From Ignavibacteriota bacterium (lineage in GTDB: Bacteria > Bacteroidota > Ignavibacteria > UBA10030): DNA of 64,000 bases. Below, one piece after another: positions 52,053-53,178 of this stretch; position 1 is the first letter of the stretch; every line of letters begins with the position of its first letter. The stretch lies in contig OY969585.1 in the NCBI GenBank assembly GCA_963701295.1, positions 2,304,001 to 2,368,000 of the forward strand, given 5' to 3'. The notes under the pieces were generated by a model. The model saw only the letters and a program-made list of their open reading frames with translations. It was not told the origin of the DNA and did not search any database. The translations under genes were made by a program, and so were the position numbers.

Positions 52053-52081
52053 TTGACTTTACTCCGATCCTTGGGTATATT
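52053..52081 (+). promoter_or_regulatory. sigma70-type promoter for tRNA-Ala
   Basis: TTGACT-N17-TATATT, 13 nt upstream of the tRNA. Confidence 0.7.
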
Positions 52082-52094
52082 TTATTCGAATGAT

Positions 52095-52168
52095 GGGCCG
52101 TTAGCTCAGCATGGGAGAGCGCCACAATGGCATTGTGGAGGTCACCGGTTCGAGCCCGGTACGGTCCA
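52095..52168 (+). tRNA. tRNA-Ala(GGC)
   Basis: Cloverleaf with CCACA-AT-GGC-AT-TGTGG anticodon arm, G3-U70 identity pair, and A32/U38. Confidence 0.97.
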
Positions 52169-52170
52169 CG

Positions 52171-52200
52171 AAAAGGACAATCCAATCGATTGTCCTTTTT
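52171..52200 (+). terminator. Terminator after tRNA-Ala (duplicated at 52514-52543)
   Basis: AAAAGGACAATC-CAATC-GATTGTCCTTTTT. Confidence 0.85.
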
Positions 52201-52206
52201 CTTATT

Positions 52207-52476
52207 ATGTTTTCAATGTACATACTTCAAAGTAGTACTTCCGGTCGGTATTATGTAGGTCATACAGATAAAATATCTCGTCGACTAACTGAGCATAATT
52301 CAGGAATGGCGAAATATACTCGACAGGAAAAGCCATGGAAAGTGGTGTATGTAGAAAATTATGCCACACGTTCAGCGGCGATGAAACGAGAGTCAGAAAT
52401 TAAAAGAAAGAAGAGCAAAAAGTATATCGAAAGACTGATTGAATCGGGAGAGCGTCCCGACACGACGGAGTCGTGA
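52207..52476 (+). CDS. Small stand-alone GIY-YIG nuclease
   Basis: MYILQS..RYYVGHT..RRLTEHN..KYT..PWKVVYVE..AMKRESEIK; the Tyr, Tyr-x-Gly, Arg, His and Glu residues of the family are present. Confidence 0.93.
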   Translation: MFSMYILQSSTSGRYYVGHTDKISRRLTEHNSGMAKYTRQEKPWKVVYVENYATRSAAMKRESEIKRKKSKKYIERLIESGERPDTTES

Positions 52477-52544
52477 CGGGAAGGTCACCGGTTCGAGCCC
52501 GGTACGGTCCACGAAAAGGACAATCCAATCGGTTGTCCTTTTTC
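52446..52544 (+). repeat. Partial tRNA-Ala duplicate (D-arm 3' strand to terminator) with anticodon arm replaced by a 27-nt palindrome
   Basis: GGGAGAGCG (52446-52454) matches 52113-52121; 52482-52544 matches 52139-52201 at 62/63; the intervening sequence is TCCCGACACGACGGAGTCGTGACGGGA. Confidence 0.93.
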
Positions 52545-52576
52545 ATTATAGGTTCAGCAAGAAAATTGAGGTTTTG

Positions 52577-52900
52577 TTGATTGCATCGAAAATAAAACTA
52601 TCGTCGTCGCAGGAACTTTCTATCCTATGGGATGATGAGCATGCAAGCATCATTTCTCTCCACACACTGCGTGATCGTTGCCCCTGTGCAGGCTGTCAAG
52701 GTGAAACGGTACTCCTCAAGATGTACATACCAGAACCACAGCCTCAACTTCCCGGTAGGTACAATATCATTGGAATTCAGCAAGTGGGTCACTATGCAAT
52801 TCAGATATCTTGGGGAGATCGCCATTCGACCGGTATCTATACATGGGAATATTTGCGCAATCTTTGTGAATGTCCAGGATGCCTATTAAAGAAAGAATAA
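52577..52900 (+). CDS. DUF971 / GBBH-like N-terminal domain protein
   Basis: WDDEH..LRDRCPCAGC..VGHYAIQISWGDRHSTGIYTWEYL; TTG start after GAGG. Confidence 0.88.
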   Translation: MIASKIKLSSSQELSILWDDEHASIISLHTLRDRCPCAGCQGETVLLKMYIPEPQPQLPGRYNIIGIQQVGHYAIQISWGDRHSTGIYTWEYLRNLCECPGCLLKKE

Positions 52901-53040: not shown

Positions 53041-53065
53041 CAAAAATAAATGTTCTTTGAGAAGT

Positions 53066-53158
53066 TCCTTTAATTCCTATCCAGCGAGGTAGGAAAGGGA
53101 TATGATGATAGTATTGGACTGCCCCCTTTTCCTAATTCAATGGAACTGGGGGTTTTTT
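53066..53158 (+). promoter_or_regulatory. PyrR-binding RNA element / transcription attenuator
   Basis: CCTTTAA and ATCCAGCGAGGT match the PyrR binding-loop motifs. Terminator CCCCC..GGGGGTTTTTT at 53122-53158; antiterminator TAGGAAAGGG pairs with CCCTTTTCCTA. Confidence 0.88.
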
Positions 53159-53178
53159 CATTTTAAGAAAGGTGGATC

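Follow-up and report, generated by a model that had tools for sequence, protein, structure and literature searches.

A unit of 343 bp beside a tRNA-Ala(GGC) gene, consisting of one small GIY-YIG nuclease gene and one hairpin that takes the place of an anticodon arm, is probably a selfish mini-element: judged from sequence comparison, its nuclease would nick DNA at the bases of stem-loops, and the host's own recombination, acting on tRNA homology, would insert a copy of the unit and multiply it. Packages of this kind, which are found beside numerous tRNA types and in numerous bacteria, are likely a form of integrase-free selfish DNA. The underlying system is real, widespread and tightly patterned. 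At genome level, swapped arms demonstrably depend on the nuclease family, and the replacement of one stem by another is exact to the base.

The locus lies in the window, by which is meant the whole stretch of 64,000 nucleotides that was analysed, and belongs to the source genome G000 (one contig, 3.64 Mb, 99% complete). The nuclease encoded there, 89 amino acids long, is denoted P0001. The features of the locus, in window coordinates, are the following.

52053 to 52081, + strand: sigma-70-like promoter of the tRNA in the host part, TTGACT-17-TATATT, predicted from consensus match alone (10 of 12 matches)
52095 to 52169, + strand: intact tRNA-Ala(GGC), called by ARAGORN and Rfam
52122 to 52138, + strand: native anticodon arm (positions 27-43), 17 nt, itself an inverted repeat; the segment replaced in the copy
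52139 to 52201, + strand: direct repeat 1, with variable loop, T arm, 3' acceptor strand and terminator hairpin (52170-52200)
52207 to 52476, + strand: gene for the single-domain GIY-YIG nuclease P0001, 89 aa (Pfam match)
52446 to 52454, + strand: remnant of D-loop and D-stem, 9 nt, a copy of 52113-52121
52455 to 52481, + strand: 27-nt hairpin with TCCCG/CGGGA basal stem, which replaces the anticodon arm and contains the stop codon of the reading frame
52482 to 52544, + strand: direct repeat 2, with the tRNA 3' half and a second terminator hairpin; abuts the host flank
52568 to 52900, + strand: host flank gene with a GBBH-like_N (DUF971-type) domain

The intact tRNA is the sole gene with a GGC anticodon among the 47 ARAGORN calls in the genome. 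To see how its copy is built, consider the homology on the two sides of the replaced arm. On the right, the repeats 52139-52201 and 52482-52544 recur with a period of 343 bp and are identical in 62 of 63 positions; by the sole difference (A52189 to G52532), a T-A pair in the stem of the terminator becomes a T-G wobble. On the left, GGGAGAGCG (52113-52121) is duplicated at 52446-52454, and between the two homologies the 27-nt hairpin stands exactly where the copy would have had the 17-nt anticodon arm. The folding energy of this hairpin is -11.2 kcal/mol (z -4.2), which none of 200 shuffled sequences equals. The nuclease reading frame starts 5 nt (TTATT) past the first repeat and ends at the TGA at 52474-52476, within the hairpin, so that its last codons consist of tRNA-derived and hairpin bases. 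No promoter match of its own was found upstream of the nuclease gene, which sits behind a terminator. The copy lacks tRNA positions 1-17 and with them the 5' acceptor strand; a cloverleaf fold is therefore impossible, and Rfam makes no call on it. The 343-bp unit holds one reading frame and, in a search for tyrosine integrases, no integrase: none of the 14 matches to the tyrosine integrase family (PF00589) in the genome falls in the window, and reverse transcriptase (RVT_1, PF00078) has no match in the 99% complete genome. The initial annotation, made from the letters of the window, had described the tRNA and its terminator, the GIY-YIG gene, the 343-bp period, the 62/63 repeat with its one stem-preserving wobble, the exact arm swap, the stop codon inside the hairpin and the lack of integrase and reverse transcriptase, and all of this was re-derived. 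Further downstream, ahead of a gene of the phosphoribosyltransferase family, positions 53063-53160 of the window match a PyrR binding site at 47.6 bits, which falls short of the gathering score (54).

P0001 matches the Pfam GIY-YIG domain (PF01541) with an E value of 1.7e-17 and 63.9 bits (cut-off 22.6) over residues 2-73 of its 89, and its residues Y5, Y16, G18, R26, H30 and E62 are intact, as they are in all 29 aligned proteins. Structure prediction gives, with confidence (pLDDT 88), one domain composed of three strands and three helices. The nearest solved structures by sequence are the UPF0213 proteins 1ywl and 1zg2 (E 1.9e-10 and 1.9e-8) and Slx1. In nine of ten intact pairs dN/dS ranges from 0.14 to 0.24, while the remaining pair is saturated; by these sequence measures, the nuclease gene is intact and under purifying selection. 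The family tree was built over 88 columns from 118 proteins, namely 107 family rows, ten UPF0213-like proteins and a GIY-YIG paralogue from G000 that is flanked by hairpins; two broken reading frames (L005, L082), ten near-duplicates and five repeats of same-site loci were left out. The branch that divides the family from the UPF0213-like proteins and the paralogue has an SH-aLRT value of 100, and many forks elsewhere in the tree are open. The paralogue, which we take to be Ssn-type, is 32% identical to P0001 and scores 49.7 bits, compared with a family minimum of 78.3. It lies at about 2938900-2939600 of G000:C1 within nested hairpin repeats, some of whose loops hold a TCCCG..CGGGA hairpin. 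Among the UPF0213-like genes, L018 and L022 are flanked by a different hairpin repeat family, and in L019, L020 and L022 the gene is fused in frame with a downstream protein.

Members of the family are found next to tRNA genes. A tRNA gene on the same strand lies within 400 nt at 26 of the 29 family loci in relatives (the loci other than the window's own that are listed from 220 matches) and at 56 of the 70 unique family loci obtained from the best 80 of 523 metagenome hits; among those best 80, when both flanks extend over at least 200 nt, the count is 43 of 47 unique loci. The UPF0213-like control loci have a same-strand tRNA beside them in none of ten cases. The family occupies 22 tRNA isotypes, and mapping isotypes on the protein tree requires 35 changes, compared with 59 after shuffling and a minimum of 21, from which it follows that lineages retain their isotype and have yet switched often. 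At 90 of 105 family loci a hairpin is found no farther than 150 nt from the gene, versus one of ten controls and three of 110 background segments. Checks proposed with the initial annotation, namely whether homologues are associated with tRNA duplicates and hairpins, occur beside different isotypes and form tandem arrays, are all borne out by these counts and by the arrays described next.

Two geometries occur. Among 105 family loci the intact tRNA is upstream of the gene in 75 and downstream in 13, and no tRNA was called in 17, often at contig edges. In the form with upstream tRNA, the unit holds a full 3' arm and a short piece of the D arm; in the mirror form, the 5' arm is the complete one, the 3' side is represented by a short piece, and the intact tRNA stands at the end. 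Read from their sequences, both are permutations of gene-arm-hairpin-arm. The gene often runs at its end into tRNA-identical sequence (47 of 75). Arrays reach at least 14 units in G002, where the contig ends, seven upstream units in G019 and five in G078, and the single-contig genome G271 has eight non-identical units of 343 bp, neighbours differing at 0-18 nt across a 185-nt core. Broken and decayed copies are common across loci.

Several individual loci deserve mention. G000 itself has two more family genes in mirror geometry (G000:C1 3297422-3297900 and 3414881-3415260), where a hairpin-laden 5' tRNA fragment is followed by the gene and then by an intact tRNA-Leu(CAA) or tRNA-Cys(GCA), and a broken third additional one behind tRNA-Ser(CGA), near 2067416. 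In 11 of the 75 cassettes with upstream tRNA (among them loci L003, L109, L135, L138, L141, L144 and L206), the gene starts at most 5 nt from the tRNA end, and tRNA 3' processing might there release a leaderless message. At L030, L118, L243 and L244, units or arrays finish with a 5' gene fragment past the last pseudo-tRNA, as from an aborted extra copy. Between tRNA-Ile(GAT) and tRNA-Ala(TGC), L210 has at least six gene-less hairpin units of about 85 bp, and at L006 another tRNA-Pro copy has a split hairpin whose loop encloses the gene and an intact tRNA-Pro(TGG).

What is replaced was mapped by a script over 85 tRNA-bearing loci, which returned 74 events; five self-copies were dropped, leaving 69 swaps in 53 loci. 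The map required inserts that start with T and end with A, so this feature is not independent, and a search without the requirement mostly agreed. Of the 69 swaps, 47 replace exactly tRNA positions 27-43 (26|44), over ten isotypes. In the other 22 the replaced segment belongs to the T arm (49|58 in eight cases), the D arm, the inner anticodon stem or a terminator loop; each of these 22 segments has at least two terminal base pairs, and 19 of them run C...G. The exchange of one stem for another thus looks directed by structure. What stays constant among the inserts is the basal stem, mostly TCCCG/CGGGA, with TGGCG/CGCCA at tRNA-Pro CGG. The loops vary from 3 to 8 nt and occur in both orientations. 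The cGNAg apex, earlier matched to an extra-stable DNA triloop, does not survive as a recognition element, since it is not conserved among the 67 distinct hairpins: 28 have a triloop, and 14 of these 28 are GNA, read on either strand. Nor can the swapped arm protect the locus, as the reading of it as an immunity site would have it, because the unswapped arm remains 333 bp away on the same chromosome; that reading is ruled out. Annotation is misled here, since swapped copies of full length pass for tRNAs whose anticodons are false: ARAGORN calls the copies at L216, L229 and L231 tRNA-Arg(GCG), Cys(GCA) and Pro(AGG).

The dependence on the nuclease is seen when whole genomes are compared. The family is encoded by 130 of 301 genomes of the phylum, where the threshold of the genome-level family call is approximate (one of 11 control proteins lies above it). 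An exact DNA pattern for the swapped arm is present in 31 of the 301 genomes, and its reversed control in none. All 31 motif-bearing genomes encode the family (E 1e-20 or better), and the motif is carried by none of the 171 family-negative genomes. The corresponding Fisher p of 5e-13 is overstated, because kin genomes are not independent. With the locus type of the window itself set aside, there are 33 swapped sites, of which 19 have a family gene no more than 450 nt away and 14 lack one in that range; since motif-bearing genomes always encode the nuclease and family-negative genomes never carry the motif, the gene-less copies are confined to nuclease-encoding genomes, as expected for non-autonomous derivatives. 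A search for a vehicle gave no plasmid record, five weak phage matches and nothing in IMG/VR.

A DNA search over 40 relatives recovered the tRNA-Ala site in all 15 same-genus genomes: eight are empty, five have a single unit, one has a double unit and one is gene-less.

Empty tRNA-Ala site: G001, G005, G006, G007, G010, G011, G012, G015
Single unit: G009, G014, G004 (gene broken), and G003 and G013 (split across contig edges)
Two tandem units: G002
Two gene-less pseudo copies: G008

In empty-site relatives, for example G005, G007, G010, G011 and G012, the GBBH-like_N flank gene follows directly 3' of a single terminator. A comparison of relatives for empty sites had been called for, and eight of 15 is its outcome. 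These sites may be pre-insertion or post-excision, and some perhaps short-read collapses of the 63-bp repeat. On the leuS tree, filled and empty sites are intermixed in both main clades, with at least four changes of state.

The 27-nt hairpin is identical in G000, G002, G003, G008, G009 and G013, differs by a single change in the loop in G014 and is decayed in G004, while the hosts that share it are just 77-92% identical to G000 in leuS. The flanking repeats, on the other hand, track the host: G003 has a variant in the T loop, G008 and G013 have one in the T stem and G009 has one in the terminator loop, and such lineage-specific tRNA variants are present in both the real and the pseudo copy of one genome. 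The near-identity of the repeats had been attributed to a recent event or to ongoing gene conversion. Of these, homogenisation of the copies is supported, because real and pseudo copy share the variants of their genome, and a recent event is doubtful, because the same 27-mer stands at the site in hosts so far apart in leuS.

To exemplify how units and hosts may come apart, consider G014. Its last terminator is that of the empty site in G012, and its first resembles that of the distant carrier G004. This fits a crossover in the T arm, and it does so equally well for an insertion as for an excision. G014 and G002 are 85% identical in leuS and 61% in their nuclease genes, while G014 and G009 agree in 62 of the final 69 nt of the aligned gene at a leuS identity of 78.5%; the G009 and G014 genes look mosaic (max-chi p about 0.002, uncorrected over the 15 pairs tested). 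From the distances between genes as compared with those between hosts, horizontal transfer at the tRNA-Ala site is suggested, with the qualification that an AU test did not reject the clade of G014 with G002, i.e. vertical descent (p 0.169).

Misassembly, raised at the outset as a condition under which two such copies could be spurious, is ruled out: the same junctions are intact in separately assembled genomes, and contigs from public runs of related organisms bridge gene, hairpin and T arm. Among the public sequencing runs none of the same strain was found, the best share of words being 0.14. Two joints listed in public-run contigs differ from the 343-bp unit, and one contig of 373 nt, which corresponds to one unit with a T-loop insert, cannot demonstrate a circle. 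RNA-library contigs that span the nuclease gene also contain promoter DNA and are for this reason uninformative on expression.

Taken together, the range of isotypes, the arrays and the empty sites support the proposal of the initial annotation that nuclease and hairpin form a minimal selfish unit which leaves an intact tRNA behind. In the mechanism that we propose, the protein would bind the TCCCG/CGGGA stem and cut single-stranded or cruciform DNA beside the base of the stem. Binding and nicking at stem bases are suggested because, in passages of the respective papers, SsnA cuts single-stranded DNA a few bases 5' of its hairpin (PMC11893778) and Slx1 is described as a structure-specific nuclease (PMC8287910). 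Repair by host template switching would then swap one stem-loop for another. The unit would be a gene-arm-hairpin-arm module in circular permutation, entering by a single crossover in the tRNA arm it carries complete, and both geometries as well as the restored working tRNA would be explained, because a single crossover could pass through whichever arm is complete. Gene-less hairpin copies would be non-autonomous derivatives served in trans, and the hairpin would be the handle of the element rather than an immunity site.

The proposed mechanism must be weighed against three others. In one, mobility belongs in the first place to the hairpin, a REP-like palindrome that this nuclease family or another enzyme would have spread over the genome; tRNA arms are then merely common targets, a hit in an essential tRNA survives only beside a duplicate, and the nuclease gene is a passenger in duplications. 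In its favour, G000 has 109 TCCCG..CGGGA hairpins where 34 are expected, a 3.2-fold enrichment that extends away from tRNAs and places the stem at rank 8 among 1024 pentamers; 7 of 66 long-stem hairpins nest within an outer stem, compared with 1.8% at random; and the swaps in T arm, D loop and terminator loop, the 14 of 33 swapped sites without an adjacent gene and the two orientations of the loop all agree with it. It is nevertheless rather unlikely, for tRNAs accompany the gene itself (43 of 47), which ends tRNA-identical in 47 of 75 cases, gene-bearing units form exact arrays, and the palindrome that flanks the sole Y1 (RAYT-like) gene in G000 is a different one, of GTAG type.

Improbable, too, is a homing endonuclease of SegB type, which would cut double-stranded DNA in the tRNA genes of empty alleles and be copied by break repair, with the swapped arm as a scar or immune copy. 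The target is not destroyed, for carriers retain an intact arm; P0001 has one domain in its 89 aa and is nearest to UPF0213 and Slx1, with no I-TevI-type chain among the seven structures matched to it by sequence search and a score of 15.5 against a cut-off of 56 for TIGR01453; and base-exact hairpin swaps at several arms would be left unexplained. What such an enzyme would account for is the coexistence of filled and empty alleles among same-genus genomes, and there is a parallel in SegB, a GIY-YIG enzyme that, in passages of PMC13096335, cuts within tRNA genes and forms tandem tRNA-segB repeats via 3'-end microhomology. A module that benefits its host, either because the pseudo-tRNA RNA serves as decoy, antitoxin or processing signal or because a nuclease for repair or defence is kept near tRNAs for co-expression, is likewise improbable. 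Purifying selection on the gene, a hairpin that stays identical between distant hosts and also in G008, which has lost the gene, and the presence of the family in 130 of 301 genomes are in line with a benefit, but the copy is without a 5' acceptor strand, there is free variation in position, isotype, geometry and copy number, the unit is missing here in eight of 15 close relatives, broken and decayed copies are common, and the promoter DNA in the RNA-library contigs means that they are no proof of transcription.

The mini-element reading, then, leads to a broader claim, to which we give a little under an even chance: that such units are a new class of autonomous mobile DNA of about 300-350 bp, made of one GIY-YIG nickase of 80-90 aa and one hairpin, with the hairpin swapped base for base with host stem-loops, tRNA genes of more than 20 isotypes used as integrase-free landing pads, arrays, gene-less derivatives mobilised in trans, and the nuclease present in more than 40% of the sampled phylum genomes. 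Full-text literature searches, with most subscription journals outside their reach, returned no published description of the arrangement. The architecture of the element appears new, and its mechanism is offered as a proposal. If the mechanism is true, these units would be among the smallest self-mobile elements and would enter tRNA genes with neither integrase, transposase nor reverse transcriptase; many unexplained single-domain GIY-YIG proteins, such as those in the 130 of 301 genomes, would acquire a role; and the base-exact exchange of hairpin for hairpin would be a new DNA transaction and a possible tool.

Compare the unit with known systems. Islands and prophages that integrate at tRNA genes (attL/attR) restore an intact tRNA and leave a partial 3' or 5' copy at the other end. 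The present locus likewise has an intact tRNA and a partial duplicate, but its unit is 343 bp long, has no integrase match, retains homology on both sides of the replaced arm and forms head-to-tail arrays. It differs from retroelements (Penelope-like, group II intron) in that G000 has no reverse transcriptase match (PF00078). In REP/RAYT systems the partner enzyme is a Y1 transposase. A RAYT as mobiliser of the present unit was considered and rejected, the single PF01797 match in G000 lying 1.87 Mb away with a different palindrome; this RAYT-like gene (L129, G000:C1 near 488500) has its own GTAG palindrome inside and after the gene. What the unit has in common with REP and the CGTC-tagged palindromes, which passages of Di Nocera et al. 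2013 (PMC3733652) describe as short, GC-rich, dispersed and clustered, is the tie between short GC-rich palindromes and a small enzyme gene; in that paper the word 'GIY' does not occur, and its passages with 'tRNA' concern protein genes.

Among GIY-YIG proteins, the UPF0213 and Slx1-like ones are the closest relatives with solved structures and have a minimal domain like that of P0001, but they lie on a separate branch and have no same-strand tRNA at any of the ten loci. Dunin-Horkawicz et al. 2006 (PMC1564403), in the passages at hand, merely ask if stand-alone Slx1-like and UPF0213 proteins might be parasites. Homing endonucleases share with the unit the occurrence of filled and empty cognate alleles (eight of 15 empty) and differ in that P0001 has one domain (2-73 of 89) and no separate DNA-binding modules. 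In SegB there is an earlier case of a GIY-YIG enzyme that drives tandem amplification at tRNA genes by way of recombination: in passages of Chihara et al. 2026 (PMC13096335), its gene stands beside many tRNA isotypes, it cuts in tRNA genes, and it amplifies by homology of the tRNA and the 3' end of the gene. The same passages describe it as phage-borne, cutting double-stranded DNA and carrying a full-length tRNA in a 718-bp unit, and contain no hairpin-swapped pseudo-tRNA; the present family, in contrast, was not found in IMG/VR.

The Ssn nucleases (cd10448), for which passages of Chenal et al. 2025 (PMC11893778) propose an origin in mobile elements, are likewise single-domain GIY-YIG proteins of about 90 aa with a GC-rich hairpin as partner, P0001 having 89, and the NTS core described there, ATTCCCG..CGGGAAT, shares TCCCG..CGGGA with the present hairpin. 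The word 'tRNA' does not occur in the main text of that paper, whose supplements may list tRNA neighbours. What sets the present unit apart is that its hairpin replaces tRNA arms and that tRNA-derived direct repeats form its boundaries. The published SRM pattern was found within 500 bp at none of 105 family loci, and also not at the hairpin-flanked paralogue of G000. From this paralogue, which stands in for SsnA and is presumed to be of Ssn type, the family is separated at 32% identity and an SH-aLRT value of 100. On the features testable here, the unit appears to belong to neither of its nearest known counterparts, the Ssn nucleases and phage SegB. If its mechanism is true, it bears on the open proposal that Ssn-like pairs of nuclease and hairpin are mobile elements, for by analogy the unit would act like such an Ssn-type pair, with tRNA genes as its landing pads.
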